A DNA stretch of 64,000 nucleotides from Trueperaceae bacterium (GTDB lineage Bacteria > Deinococcota > Deinococci > Deinococcales > Trueperaceae), in contig JAXHLW010000013.1 in the NCBI GenBank assembly GCA_034521815.1, forward strand, positions 864,001 to 928,000, read 5' to 3'. Position 1 is the first letter of the stretch. Every line of letters begins with the position of its first letter. The notes below the pieces were generated by a model. The model was not told the origin of the DNA and did no database searches. It worked only from the letters and a program-made list of their open reading frames with translations. The position numbers were made by a program, and so were the translations under genes. Of the stretch, positions 758-20,783 are shown one piece after another.

Positions 758-3700
758 CTAGAACGGCACGTCGGCACGCGCCGGCGCCTGGCTCTTGCGG
801 CTCCACACCGGGCCACGGTCCACCAGCAGCCGCGCCCGGTCGATCGTCACGCTGGTACGCAGCCAGGGGCAGTGCGCCTCGAGCTCGCCTAGTCGCGAGG
901 CGTCGACGCTTATCCCCTCGGCCCACCAGGTGACCACGCCGCGCGACGAGGGAAAGCGCAGCTGGACCGGCGTCGTGCCGGACGTCTCGTCGATCCGAGA
1001 GCGAAGCTCCAGCAGCTGGTGCTCCGCGATCTCACGAGGGTCGAAGCGCAGGACGGCGACTTCGGGCACCGCGTCGCGAGCGTCCCAGCGGATCAGGCGA
1101 TCGGCCACCAGCCGGACCGCCTCGCCGTCCTCGGACGCCTCGGCGACCAGCACCACGGGCGCGTCCTCTTCGAGCAGGGGGGCGATCTCGTCGAAGATCC
1201 GACTGAACGCCACGACCTCGCGCGAGCCGCTCTCGTCCGCGATCTCGAACCTCGCCATCATCGACCCCTTGCGGGTCGGACGCTTGGCGACGTTCTGCAG
1301 GATCCCGGCCAGCACGACCTTGAGCCGTCCCGTGGTGTCGCCCCCCGAGCGCTGCTCGTGCAGCCACGCCTCGAGGTGATCCACCGCGCAGCTCGCCGCC
1401 TCGGCCAGGCCGGGGTACGAGCGCATCGGATGCGCGCTGATGTAGAGCCCCAGCGACTCCTTCTCGAGCTTGAGCCGATCGAGGTCGGACAGCTCCTCGC
1501 CTGCCTGGAGCGCGGGCGGCTTGAGCTCCTCCGCGGCGAACAGCGCCATCTGGCCGGCCGCGTCGCTCTCGCGCTGGGCGGTCCCCCATTTCATGGCCGA
1601 CTCGACGTTCGCCAGCAGGGTGGCGCGCTCGCCCATGGCGTCGAAGGCGCCGGCCTTGACGAGGTGCTCCAGCGCGCGCTTGTTGATCAGCGAGCTCTCG
1701 CAGCGGCGACAGAAGTCGAACAGGTCCTTGAACGGTCCGGCCCGCTCGCGCTCGGCGACGATGTGCTCGACCGCGGCGTCCCCGACGTTCTTCACGCCGT
1801 GCAGACCGAAACGGACCACCTCGCCGACGGGGGTGAAGTCGCCGCGTGACTCGTTGATGTCGGGCGGCAGGACCGCGATCCCCATGTGCCGCGTGTCGGC
1901 GACGTACTGCGCGACCTTGTCGCTGTTCGCCCGCTCGACGGTGAGGAGCGCTGCGGCGAACTCGACCGGGTAGTGCGCCTTCAAGTAGGCGGTCTGGAAC
2001 GACAGTTCGCCGTAGGCGGCCGAATGACTTTTATTGAACCCATAATTGGCGAACTTCTCGAGCAGGTCGAAGATCCGGTTCGCCTCGGCGGCGGGGATCC
2101 CTTCTCCGCGGCCCCCCGCTCGAACACCTTGCGCTGGCGCTCCATCTCCGCGACCTTCTTCTTGCCCATCGCGCGGCGCAGCAGATCGGCCTCGCCCAGG
2201 CTGTAGCCGGCCACCGCCTGGGCGATCTGCATGATCTGCTCCTGGTAGACGGGAATCCCGTACGTCTCCTCGAGGATGGGGGCGAGCAGCGGCTCGCTCA
2301 CCTCGAAGTCGTCGAAGCGGACCTCCTCGGTTCCGTGATGGCGCCGAATGTAGGCCGGGATGTTCTCCATCGGTCCCGGCCGGTACAGCGCGGAGACGGC
2401 GATCAGGTCCTGGATCCGGCGCGGCTTGAGCTTCTTGAGCGTGTCCACCATGCCGCCCGACTCGAACTGGAACACCCCGGCCGCCTCGCCGCGCGAGAGC
2501 AGCTCGAAGGTGGCAGCGTCGTCGTGCGGAAACTCGCTGGGGTTCAGCTGGACGCCGCGGGTGTCGTGGATGATGCGGACCGCGGCCTCGATGAACGAAA
2601 GCGTCCGCAACCCCAGGAAATCCATCTTCAAGAAGCCCAGGTCCTCGATCGATCCCATGTCGTACTGACACACGATCGGGCCGTCGCCGGAGCGGAACAC
2701 CGGGGCGAGCTCCTGCACCGGATCGCGCGAGATGATCACGCCCGCGGCGTGCACCGAGGCGTGCCGGGTCAGGCCTTCGAGCGATTGCGCGATGTCGACG
2801 TACGCCTTCGCGCCGCCGTCGTACAGCTCGCGGAACTCGGGAACCTCCTCGAGCGCCCGCTCGATCGGAACGGAGCGCCCGAACACGATGGGAACCAGCT
2901 TGCTGATCCGGTCGGCCTCGGCGAAGCTGGAATCCGTCACGCGCGCGGCGTCCTTGATCGCGGCCTTCGACGCCATCGTCCCGAAGGTGGCGATGTGCGC
3001 CACCTTGTCCTCGCCGTACTTGCGGCGGACGTACTCGATCACCTCGCCGCGCCGGACGTCGGAGAAGTCGACGTCGAAGTCGGGCATGCTGATCCGCTCG
3101 GGGTTGAGGAACCGCTCGAACAGCAGGTCGAACTCCAGCGGGTCGATGTCGGTCACCCGGATCGCGTACGCGACGATCGACCCTGCGCCCGAACCGCGGC
3201 CCGGGCCGACGGCGATCTTCTGGTCCTTGGCCCAGTTGATGAAGTCCGCGACGATCAGGAAGTAGTCCGGGAACCCCATCGCGATGATGACGCCCAGCTC
3301 GTACTCGGCCCGCTCCAGGATGCGGAGCGCCTCGGCCGACTCTCCACCTTCGTCCCTGAGCGCCGCGAGGTGGGGGTATTCGTAGCGGTCGTACGTCTGC
3401 CCGGGATCCTTCTCGGTCCGTCCGCGCTCGCCGCAGCGGGCGACGCCCAGCAGCACCTCGTCGAGCGGCGCCTCGGAGGCGTCCGTCCCCAGCGGCCCCT
3501 GGACACGTCCCGCGACCGCCGCGTAGCGCCGAACGAGCGCCTCGTCGATCCGATCGGGGTAGCGCTGCATCAGCCCCGCGTACGTCTGGACGCGCAGCTG
3601 CTCGGCCAACGTCCGGCCCTCTGGAATGGGAAGCTCGGGCATCTGGTAGACGCGTGCGTCGCCGATGGGCAGCTCGACGTCGCACAGCTCCGCCACCCGC

Positions 3701-4528
3701 ATGGTGTTGGCCAGCGCCCCGGGGTAGGCCGACTCGGGAATCGCCTGCGCCATCTCGTCCGGCGTCTTGACGTAGAACTCGTCGCACGGGAACTTGAAGC
3801 GGTCCTCGATCGGACAGCGTCGTCTTCGTCTGGATCGCGAGCAGCGCCTCGTGCGCCCGGGCGTCCTCGCGCCGGACGTAGTGACCGTCGTTCGTCGCCA
3901 CCAGCCCCAGGCCGTACCGCTCGGCCAGACCCTTCAGGACCGGGTTCAGCCGCTTCTGCTCCTCCAGCCCGTGGTCTTGCAGCTCGACGAAGAAGTCGTC
4001 GCCGAAGATGTCCAGGTACTGCCGCAAGACCTCCTCGCCGGCCTCCTCGCCGACGTCGAGAACGGTTCGCGGAATCTGCGCGCCCAGGCATCCTGAGAGG
4101 GCGATCACGCCCTCGGAATGCTCCGCGAGCAGCTCGTGGTCGACGCGCGGCTTCATGTAGAACCCCTCGAGCCAGGCGCGGCTGTTCAGCTTGGAGAGGT
4201 TCTTGTAGCCGGTGAGGTTCTTGGCGAGCAGCGTCAGGTGGAAGTAGCCGCCGTCGAGCTTGCTGCTGGGCCGTTTGCGCTCGAATCGGCTGCCGGCGGT
4301 GACGTACGCCTCGAAGCCGAGGATCGGCTTGACGCCGCTGGCGACCGCCGTCCGGTAGAACTCGACGGCGCCGTGCATGTTTCCGTGGTCGGTCATCGCG
4401 ACGACCGGGTCGTCCGGCGTGACCTGCTTGACCCAGGCGATCAGGTCCTTGATCCTTGCGGCCCCGTCCAGGAGGCTGTAGGCGGTGTGCTGGTGCAGGT
4501 GGGCGAAGGTCGGTGGAGCGTCGGGCAT
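758..4528 (-). CDS. dnaE: DNA polymerase III alpha subunit; two compensating frameshifts (~3810, ~2100), probably sequencing errors
   Basis: PHP domain (FAHLHQHTAYSLLDG, MTDHGNMHG), GPGRGSGAGS, FERFLNPERISMPDFDVDF, KMDFLGL, YGFNKSH and a C-terminal OB fold. The sequence is spread over ORFs 758..4684 and 1981..3753. Confidence 0.96.
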   Translation of the reverse strand: MPDAPPTFAHLHQHTAYSLLDGAARIKDLIAWVKQVTPDDPVVAMTDHGNMHGAVEFYRTAVASGVKPILGFEAYVTAGSRFERKRPSSKLDGGYFHLTLLAKNLTGYKNLSKLNSRAWLEGFYMKPRVDHELLAEHSEGVIALSGCLGAQIPRTVLDVGEEAGEEVLRQYLDIFGDDFFVELQDHGLEEQKRLNPVLKGLAERYGLGLVATNDGHYVRREDARAHEALLAIQTKTTLSDRGPLQVPVRRVLRQDAGRDGAGDSRVGLPRGAGQHHAGGGAVRRRAAHRRRTRLPDARASHSRGPDVGRAAARPDVRGADAALPRSDRRGARSALRGGRGTCPGAAGDGRLRGAARRGAAGRRPLRRARTDREGSRADVRPLRIPPPRGAQGRRWRVGRGAPHPGAGRVRAGRHHRDGVPGLLPDRRGLHQLGQGPEDRRRPGPRFGRRVDRRVRDPGDRHRPAGVRPAVRAVPQPRADQHARLRRRLLRRPARRGDRVRPPQVRRGQGGAHRHLRDDGVEGRDQGRRARDGFQLRRGRPDQQAGSHRVRALRSDRAGARGGSRVPRAVRRRREGVRRHRAIARRPDPARLGARRGRDHLARSGAGARPGVPLRRRPDRVSVRHGIDRGPGLLEDGFPGVADAFVHRGRGPHHPRHPRRPAEPQRVSARRRCHLRAALARRGGRGVPVRVGRHGGHAQEAQAAPDPGPDRRLRAVPAGTDGEHPGLHSAPSRNRGGPLRRLRGERAAARPHPRGDVRDSRLPGADHADRPGGGRLQPGRGRSAAPRDGQEEGRGDGAPAQGVRAGGRGEGIPAAEANRIFDLLEKFANYGFNKSHSAAYGELSFQTAYLKAHYPVEFAAALLTVERANSDKVAQYVADTRHMGIAVLPPDINESRGDFTPVGEVVRFGLHGVKNVGDAAVEHIVAERERAGPFKDLFDFCRRCESSLINKRALEHLVKAGAFDAMGERATLLANVESAMKWGTAQRESDAAGQMALFAAEELKPPALQAGEELSDLDRLKLEKESLGLYISAHPMRSYPGLAEAASCAVDHLEAWLHEQRSGGDTTGRLKVVLAGILQNVAKRPTRKGSMMARFEIADESGSREVVAFSRIFDEIAPLLEEDAPVVLVAEASEDGEAVRLVADRLIRWDARDAVPEVAVLRFDPREIAEHQLLELRSRIDETSGTTPVQLRFPSSRGVVTWWAEGISVDASRLGELEAHCPWLRTSVTIDRARLLVDRGPVWSRKSQAPARADVPF

Positions 4529-4565
4529 GCGGCCAGCATACCGGCGGTCGACGTCCCCTTCGGCG

Positions 4566-4594
4566 TTGACAGGGGAGGGGGGCTGGGATACGAT
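4566..4594 (+). promoter_or_regulatory. Sigma70-type promoter for the tRNA pair
   Basis: TTGACA (4566-4571), 17 bp, TACGAT (4589-4594), ending 11 bp before tRNA-Cys. Confidence 0.85.
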
Positions 4595-4605
4595 TTTCGG
4601 GCCTT

Positions 4606-4680
<75 letters not shown>

Positions 4681-4708
4681 CCATCGGCTACGGACCGCGT
4701 AGCCACAT

Positions 4709-10809: not shown

Positions 10810-11213
10810 ACGACGACGACGCCAACATCGACAAGGACAAGCCGCTCTACGTGATCAGCGTCGCCGCGGAGCTCGTCGATATGCACCCCCAGACGCTTCG
10901 GCTCTACGAACGCAAGGGCCTGATCGAGCCCAGCCGGAGCGCGGGGAAGACCCGGCTGTACTCGCAGCGCAACATCGAGCAGCTGCGCGAGATCCGGCGC
11001 TTGACGCAGGAGCTCGGCGTGAACCTCGCCGGGGTGGAGGAGATCATCAAGCTGCGCTCGCGCCTCGACACGCTCCAATCGAACATGGAGAGCCGCATCG
11101 GCCTGCTGCAGGGCCAGCTCGAGGAACGGATCGGCGGCATCCGAGGCGCGCTGCCGGCCGAGATCGAGGACCTCGCGCGGCGCATGGCCAAGCCCGACGA
11201 CGACGAGCAGTGA
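10806..11213 (+). CDS. hspR: HspR, MerR-family heat-shock regulator
   Basis: [48 protein letters not shown]; coupled to the dnaJ-like gene. Confidence 0.9.
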
Positions 11214-12681: not shown

Positions 12682-15600
12682 GTGCGCATCGACCGCCTGA
12701 CGCTGGCCGGCTTCAAGAGCTTCGGCGATCGCACCACCGTCGAGTTCGCGCCGGGCGTGACGGCGGTCGTCGGTCCGAACGGCAGCGGCAAGTCGAACAT
12801 CCTGGACGCGCTTCGCTGGGCCACGGGCGGTGGCCGCGCCAGCGAGTTCCGCGCCGACGAGAAGACCGCGCTGATCTTCCACGGCGCGGCAGGGAAGAGG
12901 CGGCTGGGCCGGGCCGAGGTGGAGGTCGAGCTCCACGCCGGCGGCAAGCGCCTGGTGATCCGCCGGAGCCTGGACCGCGACGGCGTCACGAAGCTGACGC
13001 TGAACGGGAAGAACGCCCGCTTCCTGGACCTCGACGAGGAGCTGGCGGGAAGCGGCCTGGGCCGCGGCAGCTTGGCGGTGATCGGTCAGGGCGAAGTGAG
13101 CGGCGTCCTGATGGCCGATCCGAGCCGGCTGCTGGCCTACGTGGCCGAGGCGGCCGGCGTCGCCCGACTGTCGGGCCGCCGCGAGCAGACCGAGGGGCGA
13201 CTCGATGCGGCGCGAACGCACCTCGACCGTCTCGAGGAGAAGCTGGCCGAGGACGGCGAACGACTCGAGTCGCTCCGGCGCGACGCGAACGACGCCCGTC
13301 GCCACGACGAGCTGTCCGCCCGGGCGCGGCGACTGCGGCTGACGCTGGCCGCCGCTCGCGTGGCGTCGCTTCGCAAGGAGGTCGAGGGGCTCGAGACCGA
13401 GACCGCCCGGCTGGAGGCCGAGCTGGCGGACGGTCGGGCGCAGCTGGCCGACCTACGCGAGGCCCTGCAGCGGTCCCGGGCCGCCGACTCGGCGGCGGAA
13501 GCCGAGCATCGCGAGGCCACCGCCGCGCACGCCAGGGCCACGGCCGAGCTGCGCGTCGCCGAGCATGCGCTGGAGGCCGCCACGACCCGCGCCGCGGACC
13601 TCGAGCGTCAGCGCGAGCGCACCGCTGCCGAGCGCGACGCGTTGCTCCGGCAGGGCGCGCCCGACGCGCCGTCCGACGATCTGGACGCGTTGCGCGCCGA
13701 GGCCGAGCGAGCGGACGCCGCCTACCGGGCGGCACGCGACGAGCGCGAGCGCGCCGAGGCCCGGGCCGAGGCGGCCCGAGCCGAACGCGAGCAGCTCGAG
13801 GCGAGCGCGGCCAGGGCCGCCAAAGCCGCCGCCGAGGCGGACGCCGAGCGCGACGCGATCCGCCGCCAGCGCGAGGAGGTCGACGCCCGCCTGGCCGAGC
13901 TCGCCGCGACCCCGGTCGACGTCGCGAGGGGCCACGAGGCGGACGAATCCGAAGCCGACGCACAGGGGTCGGGGCTCCGGAACGCTCGATACCGAGGCGC
14001 ACGCCCGAAGCGGCGGAGCGCGCGGCGGAGGAGACCCTGCGCGACGCTCAGGCGGCCCTCGACGCGGCGCGCGCCCGCCTGGAGAGCGCCCAGGCCGCGC
14101 ACGCGCGCGAGGCTGCCGAGGCCCGGGCGCTGGACCGGGCGGTCGAGCGCCAGCGCGCCGCCTTCGCCGCGCGCAGGGGGTACGCAGAGGGTCCCCGCCA
14201 CGCCCTGACCAGCGGCATCGCGGGCGTCCTGGGCTCGCTGGCCGACGTGATCCGTGTTCCACCCGACCTGCAGGAGGCGATTCAGCTGGCGCTGGGGCGG
14301 CGCGCGGAGTACGTGCTGGCCGAGGACGCAGGCGTAGCCCGGCGCGTCCTGGCGCACGTCCGTGCCGCTGGAGGCTGGGTCACCCTGCTTCCGCTGGACC
14401 TCGTCCACGGCACCCGAACGCGCCTGGATCCCGAGCTGGCCTCGCAGCCCGGCGTCGTCGGGGTGGCGTCGGAGCTGGTGGAGACGGAGGACCGTTTCGC
14501 CGCGGCGGTAGGTCAGCTGCTCGGCGGCACGGTGCTCGTCGAGACGACCGAGCAGGCGACGGCGATCGCGCGTCGCTTCTCGAGGCGCCCCCGCCTCGTG
14601 ACGCTCGAGGGCGACGTGGTCGAGCCGGGCGGAGCGCTGTCGGGCGGCCGCCGTCAGGGACGAAGCGTGCTGGTGGGCGCGGCGGCCGACCTCGAGGAGG
14701 CGGAAGCGCAGGCAGCGGAGGCGAACGCCGCCGAGCGGGCGGCCGGCGAAGAGGTCGGCGCCGCCCAGGCCTCGTTCCGGACCGCCCGCGACCGCGTCGA
14801 GGAGGCGACCACGGAGGTCCAGCACGCCCGGGCGGCCGCGGCACGCTGGCGGGAAGCGCGGGCCGCCGAACGGCACCTGCGCAGCGACCTCGAGGCGCGG
14901 CGCGAGCGCTTGGCCGAGGCCGAGCGTCGGCTTCCCGAGCCACCGGACACGATCGCGCCGGAGCGCTTGGACGAGGTGCGCGACGCCGACGCGCACGCGC
15001 GAACGACGCTGCAGGCCGCGCGCGCGGCGGAGGCGCCGGCCTCCGAGGCGGCGTCGGCTGCCGGGCGGACGCTGGCCCTGGCCGAGGAGCGCCGCCGCGC
15101 GCACGCCGCGGCGCAGGCCCGCTACGACGAGGACGTCGCTCGCAGCGAGGCGCTCGGGCGCGAGCTGGAGCGCCTGGCGGAGGCGCTCGAGTCCGGCTGG
15201 GCCGCGGCGCGCGACGCCGAGCGACGGGCCGTGCAGGCGCGCGCATCGCTGCCCGAGGACGCCCCTGCGACCGAGGAGGCGCGCGAAGACGCCCGCGCAC
15301 GGCTGCGCGAGGCGGAGGAGGCGCTGGAGTCGGCCGCCGAAGCCCAGAGCCGACGGGCCGAGGCCCTGGAGCACGCCCGCGTGCAGGCGGCCCGGCGCGA
15401 GGCGGCGCTCGAGGCTGCCGAGGCCGAGCACGACAGCTTTCCAGCCGGCCTCGAGCCGCTGGACCTGAATGATCGGGCGGCGCGCGCCGAGCTACGCGAA
15501 GCCGAGGCCGAGCTGGAGCGTCTGGGCGCGGTGAACCATCGCGCCGCCCAGGAGCTCGAAGGCCTCGAGGACGACCACCTCGAGCGCGAGCGCGAGGCGC

Positions 15601-16166
15601 GCGACGCCCGCGACGCCGTCGAGCGTCTCGGCTCGACGCTCATCCGGCTGGACCGCGAGACGACGTCGCGCCTGACGGCCGCGATCGCCGGCGTGCGGAC
15701 CCGCTTCGTCACGCACTTGGGCGAGCTGTTCGGACCGGACGGGGACGGCGACGTCGAGGCCGATCTGGAGGAGGGACGGCCCGTCGGGCTGCGCATCCGC
15801 CTGCAGCCGCCGGGCAAGCAGACGCAGGCGCTGGGGCTGCTGTCCGTCGGCGAGCGGACGATGGGCGCGCTGGCGTTCCTGTTCGCGCTGATGGGCGAGG
15901 AGCAGGGGGGACGCGGCATGCCGGTCGCGGTGCTCGACGAGGTGGACGCGCCGCTGGACGAGGCCAACATCCGTCGCTACCGGACGTTCCTGGAGCGCAT
16001 GGCGTCGAACGGCACGCAGTTCGTGCTGATCACCCACCAGAAGGCCACCTTCGAAGTCGCCGACGTGCTGTGGGGCGTGACGACCGAGCAGGGCGTCAGT
16101 CGCGTGTTCTCGATCCGCAAGGAGTCCGACGAGCCGCGGGCGGTCGCGAGCACGGCGCCGTCGTAG
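12682..16166 (+). CDS. smc: Chromosome segregation protein SMC; two single-base insertions at ~13978 and ~14006
   Basis: GFKSF, Walker A GPNGSGKSN, Q-loop IGQGEV, coiled coils, hinge (RLVTLEGDVVEPGGALSGG), LSVGE, Walker B LDEVDAPLD and ITH. Confidence 0.93.
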
Positions 16167-16168
16167 CG

Positions 16169-16290
16169 GTCCGACCGCGACAGCGCACGCATCGACAGCG
16201 CACGCATCGTCCACGTCGCGCGCCTCGCCGTCCGACTCGCGACTGCGCGCGCATCAACGGCGCGCGCATCGTCCACGACCGCGCGCTTCA
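16169..16290. repeat. Two ~61-bp imperfect tandem units, each containing an internal 15-bp duplication (GACAGCGCACGCATC)
   Basis: Units start at 16169 and 16230 and fill the smc/recombinase convergent gap. Confidence 0.8.
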
Positions 16291-17773
16291 GCGCTCACCC
16301 AGTCCGTCGTCCCGGTCCAGCCGTTCGGCTTCAACGCTCGCCGTCGTCGCCGTCCGCGCTTCAGCCGTACCACCCGCCAAATCGTCGGCGATGGCGCGCC
16401 GCTCGGCACGGCTGCGCTTGCTGTAGCGGCGCGTCGTCTGGAGGTTCGCGTGCCGCAGCAGGTCGGCGGCGGCGTCGATGCCGTGCCGCCGCGCGACCTC
16501 GGTCCCGGCGGTGTGGCGCAGGCCGTGCACCTCGCGCCCCTCGTACCGGACGCCGGCCCGCTCGCACAGCGCTCGCAGCCGCAGCCGCGCCCGCCCGAGT
16601 CCGAAGCCCAGCACGCGGGCGGCCGGGTCGGGCCGGGTCCGGGCGGATCGCGGCCAGCGCTGCCAGGAGCGCGCCCTGCGGCCGGGACGTCCCGCACCCG
16701 GCCGCCCCTTGCCGACGACGCGCGCGCAACACGCCTTCGCGAGCGTCCACCTGACCCCAGACGAGGCCGGTCGCTTCGGCGTTGCGGAGGCCCGCGGTCG
16801 CGCACAGGTGCACGAACGCGGCGTCCTTGGGCCCGGCCGCGATCAGCAGGCGGGCGATCTCGTCGGCGCGGTACGCCTCGCGCTTGTCCTCGGGCGCGAC
16901 GCCGTCCACCGGCGCCGTCAGGTCGCGGAACGGATCGGCGTCGGTCGCGCCGACGTGGCGCAGCGCACGGTAGAGCGCCTTGCCGGCGGCCAGCTTGACC
17001 GCCACCGTCGCCGCGGCGCGCGGACCGGTCTCGGTGCGTCCCCGCAGCCGTCGCTCGATCGGCTCCGTCTCGAGCCGGATCAGCCAGATCGCGCCGGCGT
17101 CGGGCGACGGCCGCAGCAGGTTCTCGTCCTGCCACGCCTCGACCAGGTCGCGGACGCCGCGACGGTAGGCGTCGCGCGTCCGCTCGCTCATGCCGGCGCG
17201 TTTGCGACCGCGCGTGGCCAGCACGTAGTGCGTGAGGTCCCAGAGCGCGTCCGGGTCGCGCTCGTTCGCGGCGCGCACGGCCCGGACGCGCCGCAGCTCG
17301 GGCGACAGCCGCGCCCAGCGCACGGCGGCGTCCACCGCGTCCTCGGACGCCACCTCCAGCTCGGTGGCGGCGCTGAGGCGGACCTCGCCGCTGGCCGCGA
17401 GCTGGACGAGGTCGTCGACGCCGCTGCGGAACAGGGCGTGCACGCGGACGCGGCTGACCCCGAGCTCGCGTCCGAGCTGGGCCAGCGACGCCGGCTCGGA
17501 CGAGGCGCCCAGCGCGCGCCTGAGCACCTCGGCGCGGCGCGGCTCGAGCCGGGGGGCGAAGGCGCGCAACAAGGTGAACGCGGCGGCCAGCGCAGCCCGG
17601 TCGCCGAGCACCTCGCGCACGCTGCGCGCACTGCGGTCGGCGCGCAGCAGACGGAGCGACAGGTCCGCCGCCGAGGTCGCGTCGGTGCTCGCGCCGGCCT
17701 CGTGAGGGTCGGACGACGCTCGGGGCGTCGCGCCAGGCGATTCGTGCGGCGTTTCGTTGGACGTCGAAGCCAT
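16288..17773 (-). CDS. Tyrosine recombinase (Xer/integrase-like) with an N-terminal sigma70-region-4-like HTH; cluster of indels at ~16625-16725
   Basis: Catalytic set AGLRNAE (R), VVGKG (K, after correcting the frame), HGLRH, LLRHAN, TTRRY. Core-binding region SERTRDAYRRGV. N-terminal ASLAQLGRELGVSRVRVHAL. Confidence 0.85.
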
Positions 17774-17778
17774 GCCGT

Positions 17779-17823
17779 ATGTTAACCCCATACCGACAAG
17801 AGACATTATCGGATTGTTAACAT
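17779..17823. other. Putative recombinase binding/recombination (dif-like) site
   Basis: CATACCGACAA-GAGACA-TTATCGGATTG (11-6-11; arms 8/11 inverted-identical), flanked by perfectly inverted ATGTTAAC/GTTAACAT. AT-rich island immediately upstream of the recombinase ATG. Confidence 0.65.
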
Positions 17824-17922
17824 GCAGATGGCGAAGCGAATCCGGCGATTCGATCGTGCGCACCGCGGTCCCGGCGTCGGCCTTCGGACCGCTGCACGGT
17901 CGGACCGACCGTATGATGAACC

Positions 17923-20783
17923 GTGGCCGACCATGGACCGGTCTCGATTCATCACCGTCCACTGGCCGAACTCGCGCGCGACGTCCGCACGAACGCCATC
18001 TTCACGATCGACGTGGGCGGCACGATCGGCTCCTGGAACGAGGGCGTGAAGTCGTTGCTCGGTTACGACGAGCACGAGTTCATAGGGATGCCGTTCGGCC
18101 TGCTCTTCACAGGCGAGGACCGGGACGCCGGCGTCCCTCGCCGCGTGCTCGACGAGGCGATCGCCCAGGGCGAGGCTCAGGGCGAGCGATGGCACGTCAA
18201 GAAGAGCGGCGAGCGCTGTTGGATCAACGGCCTGGTCACCACCGTTCGTGACGAGCACGGCCAGCCGTGCGGCTTCGTGAAGATCGTGCGGGACCAGACC
18301 GACACGATGCGGGCGGAAGGTCGCCTGTACGAGAGCGAAGAACGGTTCGCCAAAGCGTTCCGCAGCAGCCCCACCCCTCTCGCCATCATGCGCCTGCCGA
18401 CCGGCGAGCTGACCGACCTGAACGAAGCGTTCACGCGCAGCTTCGGACGGCCGCACGACGACCTTGAAGGCATGACGCTCGCACGGCTGCTGCCCCACGA
18501 TGCCGGCTACGTGGCGAAGGACATCCTGGACGACCTTCACAGCGGTCGTCCGATCCGGCGCGAGGCCACGTTCGGTCGAACCTCGGACGGCACGCGGCAC
18601 GGCACCTTCGCATTCGAGCCCGTCGTGATCGCCGGCGAGCCGCACGCGGTGATGTCGGTGCACGACGTGACCGACCGGCGCGCGGCACGCGACGACGTCG
18701 AGCGGCAGAAGGCGATCGTAGAGGGCATCCTCGCGACCCTTCCCGGCGTGTTCTACATGGTCGAGGAGAGCGACCCGCGAAGGCTGGTCCGCTGGAACGA
18801 CGAGCTCGAGCGCGTCACCGGCTACACCGCAGCCGAGCTCATCGGCATGCGGGTCGCGAAGCTCGTCGTCGAGGAGGACCTCGGCGCCAGGGACATCGTG
18901 GCCGGCCTCGCAGGGCGACGCGTCTCCATCGAGGCGCGCTTGCGCTGCAAGGACGGCACCCTCGTTCCCTACCTGTTCACCCTTCACCGCGCCGTGCTGC
19001 CCGACGGTCGATACGTCGTCGGCGTCGGGCTGAGCATCGAGAAGCAGACACGGGCCCAGGACGCCCTCGTTCGCCGTGCCCGCCAACAGGCGGCGATCTC
19101 CGACCTGGCGGAGCGCCTGCTCGAGACCACGGAGATGCACGACGCGCTCGAGCGGACGATCGAGGTCGTCGGCGACGTTCTAGGCGCCACGAACGTCCAC
19201 GTGCTCAGACTGGAGGACGACGAGCTCGTGGTCGCCAGCGCCAGCGACGTCCAGCTCGCCCAGCGGCGCGCCGAGAAGCTCGCCTCGGGGGCGGACGACG
19301 GCCTCCGAGCGGTGATCCCGGCCGCGGACGGCCGGTACGGCCTGATCGAGGCCGTTCTGGCCTCGGAGAACGATCGCGACGACGAGCAGAGCCGCTTCCT
19401 GGACACGATCGCGTCGCTGGTCGGAAGCGCCGCGGAACGGTACCGGCTTCACCGCCGCCTCGCGCACGCAGCCGAGCACGACCGGCTCACGGGACTCCCG
19501 AACCGCACGGTGATCGAGGTCCAGCTCGAGAACGCCATCGAGCGTGCCGCCCGTGTGGACGGCAAGGTCGCGGTCGCGCTCCTCGATCTGGACCGCTTCA
19601 AGACCGTGAACGACTCGCTCGGCCACTCGGCCGGCGACGACCTCTTGGCAGGCGTCGCGGACCGGCTTCGTGAGAGCGTGCGCGGAATGGACACCGTCGC
19701 GCGCCTCGGAGGGGACGAGTTCGTGATCGTCCTCCCCGAGATCGTCGACGAGGCCGAAGCGGCCCACGTCGCCGAGCGCGTCCTGACGTCGTTCGAGCAG
19801 CCGTTCGTCGTCAGCGGTCGCCAGCTGACCATCGCCACCACGCTGGGTATCGCGCTCTTCCCCGACGACGGCCAGACGGTGGACGCGCTGTTGCGGGCCG
19901 CGGACGGCGCGATGTACATGGGCAAGACGAGCGGTCGTGGCACCTACCGCTTCGCGACGGCCGAACGTGGCATGAAGGTCGGCGAGCGCCTCGAGCTCGA
20001 ACACGACCTTCGCGAGGCGCTGACGTCCGGACAGCTCGCCCTCGCCTATCAGCCGCAGATCGCGCTCGCGACCGACCGCATCGTCGTGGTCGAGGCCCTG
20101 GTCCGCTGGCACCACCCCACTCGCGGTGTGCTCTTGCCCGAGGCGTTCCTTCCGCTGGCCCACGAGATCGGGCTCGCCGCCGCGATCGACGAGTGGACCG
20201 TCCGCGAGGCTTGCGCACGGCTCCACGCGTTCGACCAGGCGTTCGACCACGCGTTCGGCCACACGTCGACCTCTCCCCTTCGGATCGCCGTGAACGTCGC
20301 GCCCCGGCACCTCGTTCAGCCCTCGTTTCCCGAGCGCATGGGCGTACTGGCCGGGGAGGCGGGCGTGTCCCCAGGGCGGATCGAGATCGAGGTGGACGAG
20401 TCCGCGCTGCTTTTGGACCGCGAGGCCGTCGCCCGTCACCTACGTGGCGTCGTCGATCACGGCTTCCGGCTCGCGCTGGACGACTTCGGGACGGCGTACG
20501 CGCCGGTGACGCTGGTCCGCTCCCTCCCGTTCGAGCGGCTCAAGATCGACGAAACCCTCGTCCACGACCTGCTTCCTGGTGATCACCAGGCGACGCCGCT
20601 GGCTGGGATCCTGATCGAGCTCGGCGCGCGTCTCGGCCTCGACGTCGTCGCCGAAGGGGTCGAGACCGCAGGGCAGCGCAGGGCGGTCGAGCGGCACGGC
20701 TGCGGCTACGCGCAAGGGCGACTGATCGCGGATCGCGCTATCGGGCGAAGAGCTCGCGCGCGTTCCTGCGTTCGACGGCGTGA
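17923..20783 (+). CDS. PAS-PAS-PAS-GAF-like-GGDEF-EAL c-di-GMP signalling protein; true stop probably TGA 20781-20783 after small indels at ~20735-20760
   Basis: Three PAS/PAC repeats; HDRLTGLPNR, LDLDRFKTVNDSLGHSAGD, ARLGGDEF; YQPQ..VEALVRW, LDDFGT, LKID, VAEGVET, YAQG. TATGAT-N5-GTG start. Confidence 0.9.

Follow-up and report, generated by a model that had tools for sequence, protein, structure and literature searches.

A candidate single-recombinase Xer/dif-like module beside smc near the predicted chromosome terminus of a Trueperaceae bacterium

The window analysed here is a stretch of 64,000 nucleotides, positions 864,001 to 928,000 of contig JAXHLW010000013.1 (hereafter C13) in the Trueperaceae bacterium assembly GCA_034521815.1 (hereafter G000: 13 contigs, 2,629,020 bases, 83.5% complete). 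Positions refer to the window unless C13 or another genome is named. The window contains a gene encoding an Xer-like tyrosine recombinase, convergent with smc, and, directly upstream of the recombinase start codon, an AT-rich symmetric element of 45 bp with a dif-like core. Gene and element probably constitute a self-contained module of chromosome dimer resolution, in which a single Xer-like recombinase is encoded beside its own dif-like site. A preliminary description of this DNA had proposed such a module in a Deinococcota host. The protein records place the relatives of this genome in Trueperaceae, Deinococcota, and the proposal gains support from the conservation of the palindrome, from a switch in the strand of a polar motif at the site, from the position of the site near the antipode of dnaA and from the XerC/XerD searches in related genomes.

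The element lies at 17779-17823 and reads ATGTTAAC-CC-CATACCGACAA-GAGACA-TTATCGGATTG-TTAACAT, exactly as it had been written in the preliminary description. It shows 38% G+C in a genome of 71% G+C, and equally AT-rich 45-mers represent 5e-5 of all those in the assembly. The outer 8-nt arms are 100% complementary, and the inner arms of the 11-6-11 version pair at eight of 11 positions (read by eye from the sequence). This dif geometry, also noticed before, agrees with the (A/T)AA...TT(A/T) pattern and the 10-6-10 geometry common to 41 distinct sites. The element is single-copy in the assembly: no second site was found in the 2.63 Mb with up to six mismatches to the 28-bp core or up to 10 mismatches to the 45-bp element. 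The hexamer GTTAAC has seven occurrences in the whole assembly, two of them inside the element, and the recombinase ATG is at 17773, 5 nt past TAACAT. By analogy, the 6-bp centre would be the strand-exchange region; in one same-genus locus (L009) it differs by one base from the others. A box related to the gene-distal one, GT(G/T)WAAA, is present in other Trueperaceae clades whose recombinases do not have the N-terminal extension described below. A sigma-70 -35/-10 pair using the gene-distal box was also considered and rejected, with no convincing partner hexamer on reading by eye.

The element is present upstream of the orthologous gene in all nine same-genus genomes with a match (10 searched), with 2-10 substitutions per 45 bp. 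Within the genus, both GTTAAC boxes and CGACAAGAGACATTAT are conserved, and the outer arm bases are variable. Distant homologues (31-47% identity, ~340 aa, without the N-terminal extension) show an (A/T)AA-N6-TT(A/T) palindrome directly upstream. In a survey of 80 family loci from the public genome collection, an AA-N6-TT 10-6-10 palindrome pairing at 7 or more of 10 positions was found in 49 of the 80 upstream windows. Control windows taken from these loci, which are the fair comparison for this enrichment, gave 25 of 1095. A less symmetric version of the palindrome is present in six further same-genus loci. The arms differ between lineages: many Trueperaceae show AACCTGATAA / TTATCAGGTT, a Truepera metagenome-assembled genome (MAG) shows CCTACGATAA / TTATCGTAGG, Deinococcus chromosomes show CCGTTGATAA / TTATCATCGG, Deinococcus plasmids show CCTCTTATAA / TTATCAGAGG, other Deinococcus show TTGTCACTAA / TTAGTGACAA, and two complete genomes of a third GTDB family show TTCCCGTTAA / TTAACGGGAA. 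Changes on both sides are found in eight of the 10 arm pairs (41 distinct sites), with a covariation score of 0.385 versus 0.02-0.13 for slid registers, the paired percentage being inflated because the sites in this count were selected partly by symmetry. The palindrome whose conservation upstream of the homologues had been proposed as a check is found across Deinococcota, with arms co-varying between clades. A fixed 10-6-10 dyad which co-varies with the protein lineage should be the pattern expected of the site of a homo-oligomeric tyrosine recombinase.

The position of the site was studied with polar octamers selected from C13 0-550 kb versus 1000-1915 kb, the region between 550 and 1000 kb being held out. 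The two top polar octamers are CGGGGGAG and CGGGGAAG, which together correspond to CGGGGRAG. In the held-out region this motif is found 27 times on the plus strand and five on the minus strand to the left of the element, and two times on the plus strand and 15 on the minus strand to its right. The strand flip is located between 874,941 and 883,856 on C13, an interval of 8.9 kb, and the element is at 881,779; on either side the motifs are directed toward the site, which resembles the pointing of FtsK-orienting polar sequences (KOPS) toward dif. The sharp signal comes only from the top 2-5 strongly polar words. In the window the motif is found at 10942, 19857, 22327, 43579, 53542 and 53974 (six observed versus 10.8 expected). 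CGGGGRAG is strongly polar in two Trueperaceae genera, at about one per 10 kb and without over-representation. In the complete genome G020, which belongs to the other genus, 400 kb were scanned without reselection of the words: the motif shows 29+/2- on the left and 8+/25- on the right, and flips between 1,308,709 and 1,314,240, the interval which contains the homologous site AGTCTGATAA-CTAGCC-TTATCAGACT at 1,309,819. The KOPS word of E. coli, GGGNAGGG, is found 18 times on the plus strand and 20 on the minus strand in the left arm of G020, and a preprint (10.1101/2025.03.15.643453) reports that this E. coli-type word is not polarised in D. radiodurans.

With dnaA as the origin proxy, the site is located at 0.2-3.1% of the chromosome length from the dnaA antipode in six of the seven complete chromosomes: 3.7 kb in G026 (chromosome of 2.29 Mb), 21 kb in G020 (2.92 Mb), 43 kb in G042 (4.29 Mb), 51 kb in G043, which is D. 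yunweiensis (3.92 Mb), 70 kb in G030 (2.27 Mb) and 121 kb in G041 (4.48 Mb). In the assembly of the window itself, 83.5% complete, DnaA was not found at E <= 1e-30.

The recombinase is, by its sequence, a member of the tyrosine recombinase superfamily (PF00589 and PF02899). A 49-sequence alignment shows no variation at R308, K333, H393, R396 and Y427, and conservation of at least 90% at H418. An intact orthologue matches PF00589 (Phage_integrase) with 51 bits versus a cut-off of 27.1, and PF02899 gives 23.2 bits in the orthologue P0003 and 21.8 in a second one (cut-off 22.3). The orthologues remain far below the cut-offs of the known Xer models: 57-65 bits versus 335 for XerC (TIGR02224), 35-49 versus 330 for XerD (TIGR02225), 40-50 versus 220 for XerA (NF040815), and, for XerS (NF003462, cut-off 267), 20.6 bits in one orthologue and no match in the other. 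Judged by these models, the enzyme is outside the XerS, XerC, XerD and XerA equivalog families. The AlphaFold model (pLDDT 90.9) is about as similar to XerA as it is to lambda Int, IntI, XerD, XerH and Cre, and the whole-protein fold, which is the generic fold of tyrosine recombinases, was rejected as a discriminator of Xer type. A canonical XerCD pair elsewhere had been named as a point that would speak for another system: none of the 25 related genomes encodes XerC or XerD above the cut-offs. In five same-genus genomes (G001, G004, G008, G009 and G010, 91-98% complete) the orthologue of the window recombinase is the only match, and other related genomes contain extra, weaker Xer-like genes, often paired or beside mobile genes. 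A gene encoding FtsK with its gamma domain is present (85 bits).

The module would work like XerS/difSL, with a single enzyme whose gene is linked to a terminus site. Each site would be occupied by two protomers; FtsK, following the polar CGGGGRAG motifs, would bring the two sites of the dimer together at the septum, and strand exchange by the enzyme would take place over the 6-bp centre. A leaderless recombinase mRNA would have a promoter that overlaps the site, and therefore the bound enzyme would probably repress its own gene. A TAnnnT sequence is located 4-5 bp past the proximal arm and 5-7 nt before the ATG or GTG in 19 of 40 distinct sites versus 0.4% at random positions, and in the chromosomal sites of Deinococcus TATCAT is part of the proximal arm, with the ATG 5 nt past the arm (reading by eye). 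This spacing would fit a leaderless mRNA, according to established promoter geometry. The -10 box TAACAT (17784-17779), which had been placed inside the element, agrees with this recurrence, and autorepression by the recombinase, as predicted, is a reasonable reading of the sequence. Of the outer ATGTTAA boxes, which had been likened to a XerD arm, the gene-proximal one is better explained as a -10 box of a leaderless mRNA.

Several observations weigh against a dimer-resolution module. The cumulative GC skew of C13 shows its peak near 600 kb, at a distance of ~270 kb from the site, and then stays flat as far as ~950 kb; with this plateau of 600-950 kb, GC skew was rejected as a terminus marker. 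Of the two markers on which the terminus was to be judged, the KOPS-like switch contains the site in two genera and the GC-skew peak is uninformative. Pooled sets of 10-100 weakly skewed octamers, which were also discarded, mostly track composition and show their maximum at 766-781 kb. In G005 polarity is seen only on the right arm (6+/21-, with no plus copy among the nearest 13), and the 170 kb leftward show 8+/8-. G013 is the exception among the complete chromosomes: the best homologue there, with 33% identity, lies ~295 kb away from the antipode, and two XerC/D-like genes of ~200 bits are present in this genome. The family member L063 is 1.07 Mb from the antipode. On C13 itself, a broken family copy at 207-208 kb is away from the terminus; the DNA upstream of it does not contain a dif-like palindrome, and the only repeat there, TCAGGCC...GGCCTGA, is G+C-rich and has another geometry. 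To these are added the inflated pairing count mentioned above, the frameshifts of the window gene, and the fact that the support for the module is wholly computational, from which binding, cleavage and resolution are inferred.

The frameshifts could mean that the recombinase is a true pseudogene in this organism, and that the element has become a relic or is used by another protein, which is considered unlikely. The R, K, HxxR, H and Y residues reported at 16288-17823 are all present, and the single reading frame is not: the 350 N-terminal residues are in one frame, and the GKGG lysine, the following stretch and the HxxR-H-Y part are in other frames. With respect to the closest orthologue (85% nucleotide identity), the gene shows 1-bp insertions near 16720, 16708, 16677 and 16637, four within 85 bp, and further indels near its 3' end, as a decaying gene would. 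Comparison with the contigs of three other metagenome runs (X1-X3) gives few mismatches, with single bases omitted in those contigs and four extra bases at 16349-16369; it rests on contigs of other samples, not on reads of the source sample, for which no sequencing run shared at least half of the sampled words (best 0.34). However, those near-identical contigs do not contain the insertions, every frame segment still encodes conserved residues, no decay is seen besides the indels, and the orthologues are intact (442-476 aa) in seven of the nine same-genus genomes, the other two being interrupted by a contig end or an N run. Because smc, a second recombinase of the family and the phage-type integrase adjacent to it are also frame-split, which points to indel errors throughout the assembly, the breaks are probably assembly indels and not decay. 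The second recombinase, split over frames beside the integrase, which is also in pieces, is located at C13:~206-209.5 kb, outside the window, and with it the description of the window enzyme as a lone recombinase does not strictly hold.

The palindrome could also be only an operator for self-repression, with the real recombination site or another resolution system elsewhere. The overlap of the site with a -10-like box whose position suits a leaderless mRNA, a sigma-70-type match (TCGCCA-18-GATAAT) within the site and the 16.5% of the genome that is unassembled agree with this idea, which is nevertheless quite improbable: the site has no relative in the assembly within the mismatch limits given above, its geometry is that of a tyrosine-recombinase crossover site, and there is no reason for an operator to be located at a polar switch in two genera or near the antipode in six complete chromosomes. 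That gene and site are a mobile or integrative element, such as an attachment site beside its integrase or an integron-like platform, and not a housekeeping dif, is very improbable. The family is found on 51 Deinococcus plasmid records, extra chromosomal copies lie beside a phage-type integrase or an insertion sequence (IS), the flanks vary within the genus, with smc adjoining the gene in four of nine relatives, and contigs of relatives diverge exactly at the outer edge of the element, all of which would suit mobility. But the site is single-copy, and neither a second copy nor duplicated sites like those of integrative mobile elements exploiting Xer (IMEX) were found within 2.5 kb in the 80 loci; the position at the terminus is maintained in three GTDB families, the integron integrase model (TIGR02249) gives 17.6 bits versus a cut-off of 265, and dif regions are themselves known for variable flanks, according to passages of PMC9765430. 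The 31 open reading frames (ORFs) scanned between 758 and 32160 contain no mobile-element gene, as the preliminary description had stated for phage, plasmid and transposon genes nearby. A dimer-resolution module remains the preferred interpretation of gene and site.

The same family is found on 51 plasmid records, all of them Deinococcus, among 72,556 plasmids searched, which suggests, at the level of sequence, that the same kind of module is present on chromosomes and plasmids across Deinococcota. The plasmid members include the D. radiodurans megaplasmid gene DR_B0104 (so listed in PMC9764985), with GCCGTGATAA-TTCAAG-TTATACCGCT ~37 bp upstream. A D. radiodurans megaplasmid member (L151, NC_000958.1 123065-125432) is directly downstream of the ISDra7 transposase gene. 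Two plasmids of one Deinococcus radiomollis strain (L087 and L094) encode enzymes 98% identical and show identical arms, with centres TCTAAT and TAGAAA, respectively; these different 6-bp centres might keep the two plasmids from recombining together. Two other members, L063 and L073, are both in CP070651.1, at 1.07 Mb and 43 kb from the dnaA antipode; their arms differ and their 6-bp centre is the same (GTGGCC).

The first ~110 residues of the recombinase form a helical domain, which a sister clade (L071, L073 and L101) shares with this genus. A match to the sigma-70 region 4 family PF04545 is sub-threshold, with 20.9-21.5 bits in two of three proteins scanned. When the domain is modelled alone (pLDDT 83), most of the Foldseek matches listed are sigma-factor region 4, mostly of sigmaA, for example 1ku7_A, a -35 DNA complex (TMt 0.74), and 3n97_A (TMt 0.86), with E-values of only 0.04-0.2. 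In the sister clade the domain shows the motif LGVTRERVRAI, which we take to be a signature of region 4.2. The sites of this clade also show a CCTATTC sequence flanking the core: in L073 (2397-2445) it is a direct repeat on both sides, and in L101 (2316-2370) it is on the distal side, with a perfect TTGACA 4 bp past the proximal arm. A tentative idea, rather doubtful as a whole, is that a sigma-70 region 4 domain grafted on the recombinase in this genus and its sister clade reads the outward -35-like TTAACA boxes flanking the core, and that the Deinococcota replicons each have a private recombinase/dif pair, cross-reaction being avoided by different arms or, where the arms are the same, by different 6-bp centres. 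If this were true, each protomer would hold an arm and an outer box, which would give extra site specificity and competition with sigmaA at the own promoter of the enzyme, and private pairs would explain dimer resolution without replicon fusion in the multipartite, polyploid genomes of Deinococcus. To our knowledge, this would be the first single-recombinase Xer lineage to be fused to a sigma-4-like domain.

The features of the locus are collected in Table 1. The neighbouring genes are of housekeeping type: dnaE-like, DnaJ, M20 peptidase, smc, PAS-GGDEF-EAL (from 17923), hisS, aspS and priA. In the dnaE-like ORF (758-4684) the PHP and HHH_6 domains are found and the polymerase core domain between them is absent, and many small indels seem to run through the assembly. 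The start of the PAS-GGDEF-EAL gene falls within a 17-nt inverted repeat at 17887-17943, whose arms are 82% complementary and separated by 23 nt. An Rfam search of 17600-18100 gave nothing near threshold (top match of 21 bits versus a gathering score of 60), and the terminator scan gave no match. With respect to the closest relative (L002/L033), identity falls across the element: 91% in SMC and 94% in the recombinase, and 65-69% in PAS-GGDEF-EAL beyond the element. Contigs of other metagenomes match 17763-17822 and then diverge exactly at 17822. In G005, a contig tail (C5:868000-895528) and a contig head (C10:1-27000) both hold the recombinase and the element; the two copies are 99.1% identical over 24 kb beyond the element and only 95.7% over the gene, and they may represent two strains in one bin (contamination 6%).

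Table 1. Features of the recombinase locus and of the flanking polar motifs, in window positions.
Feature	Position	Strand	Remarks
Last plus CGGGGRAG before the site	10942-10949	+	
smc	12682-16166	+	convergent with the recombinase gene; split over two frames (12682-14208, 14247-16166)
Xer-like tyrosine recombinase gene	16288-17773	-	1486 nt; three frames in this assembly
Four 1-bp insertions versus relatives	16630-16725	-	each frame-shifting; versus L002; absent from contigs of runs X1-X3
Core-binding (SAM-like) domain	16955-17197	-	PF02899, 24.9 bits versus cut-off 22.3
N-terminal sigma-70 region 4-like helix-turn-helix	17417-17551	-	residues 75-119 of the window protein; PF04545, 21.5 bits versus cut-off 24.1
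Gene-proximal outer box ATGTTAAC	17779-17786	-	holds -10-like TAACAT (17784-17779), 5 nt before the ATG
Core dif-like site, 10-6-10	17790-17815		gene strand AATCCGATAA-TGTCTC-TTGTCGGTAT; 11-6-11 version 17789-17816
6-bp centre	17800-17805		GAGACA on plus strand, TGTCTC on gene strand; same in 9 of 10 same-genus loci including its own
Gene-distal outer box GTTAACAT	17816-17823		outward reading TTAACA, -35-hexamer-like; kept in 10 of 10 same-genus loci
First minus CGGGGRAG after the site	19857-19864	-	all five window motifs right of the site on minus strand

The resolution of chromosome and megaplasmid dimers in Deinococcota is unsettled, and this locus is a concrete candidate for it. It offers a recombinase family, a site rule, (A/T)AA-N6-TT(A/T) with lineage-specific arms beside the gene, and, in Trueperaceae, the polar motif CGGGGRAG. 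If the module is what it appears to be, it would add one more independent lineage of single Xer recombinases to XerS, XerH, XerA and XerL, and the site would be of practical use as a mark of the terminus in MAGs with flat GC skew. The portions of the literature covered by the searches describe no Deinococcota single-recombinase Xer/dif module, the supplements of PMC9764985 and PMC3025954 being places where some sites may be listed, and no tyrosine recombinase with a sigma-70 region 4 domain. For D. radiodurans, a passage of PMC9764985 (mBio 2022) mentions six putative tyrosine recombinases together with 'putative dif' sites that are unpublished, and defers their test. Deinococcus and Thermus are unmentioned in the passages of PMC5357621 and PMC9765430 used here, and the main text of PMC3025954 names neither of them.

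Among the known systems, XerS/difSL is described in passages of PMC5357621 as one recombinase acting alone, with its gene immediately beside the site as a single module, and difSL as a site of 31 bp with an 11-bp central region. The locus of the window shares with it the single enzyme, the adjacency of gene and site, the terminus site and the presence of FtsK in the genome; it differs in belonging to another recombinase lineage, in its 6-bp centre and near-symmetric arms, in being carried also by plasmids and in the sigma-4-like N-terminal domain of the genus. XerH/difH of Helicobacter and Campylobacter and XerL/dif of Legionellales are, according to passages of PMC9765430, single-recombinase systems with a palindromic terminus site of low G+C and varying flanking genes, and the plasmid xerL of Coxiella has an adjacent site. 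The likeness to XerH is the two-domain fold (chains 5jk0_B and 5jjv_A, TMq 0.43); unlike here, adjacency of gene and site is not described as a rule for XerH or XerL in these passages, and there is no sequence-family membership. With archaeal XerA/dif the locus shares the single recombinase and the palindromic site, and the best fold matches include the XerA structures 4a8e and 5hxy, whereas the host is here a bacterium with FtsK and the XerA model is well below its cut-off. E. coli XerC/XerD-dif shows the same geometry of arm, 6 bp and arm and the same converging polar motifs; here, in contrast, there is one enzyme, its gene is linked to the site and the polar motif is CGGGGRAG and not GGGNAGGG. 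The inner ATAA...TTAT is presumably common to E. coli dif and to this site. The plasmid-borne resolution modules, with a recombinase gene beside its site on large plasmids, resemble the members on the 51 Deinococcus plasmid records, and the difference is that here the same family is also located at the chromosome terminus.

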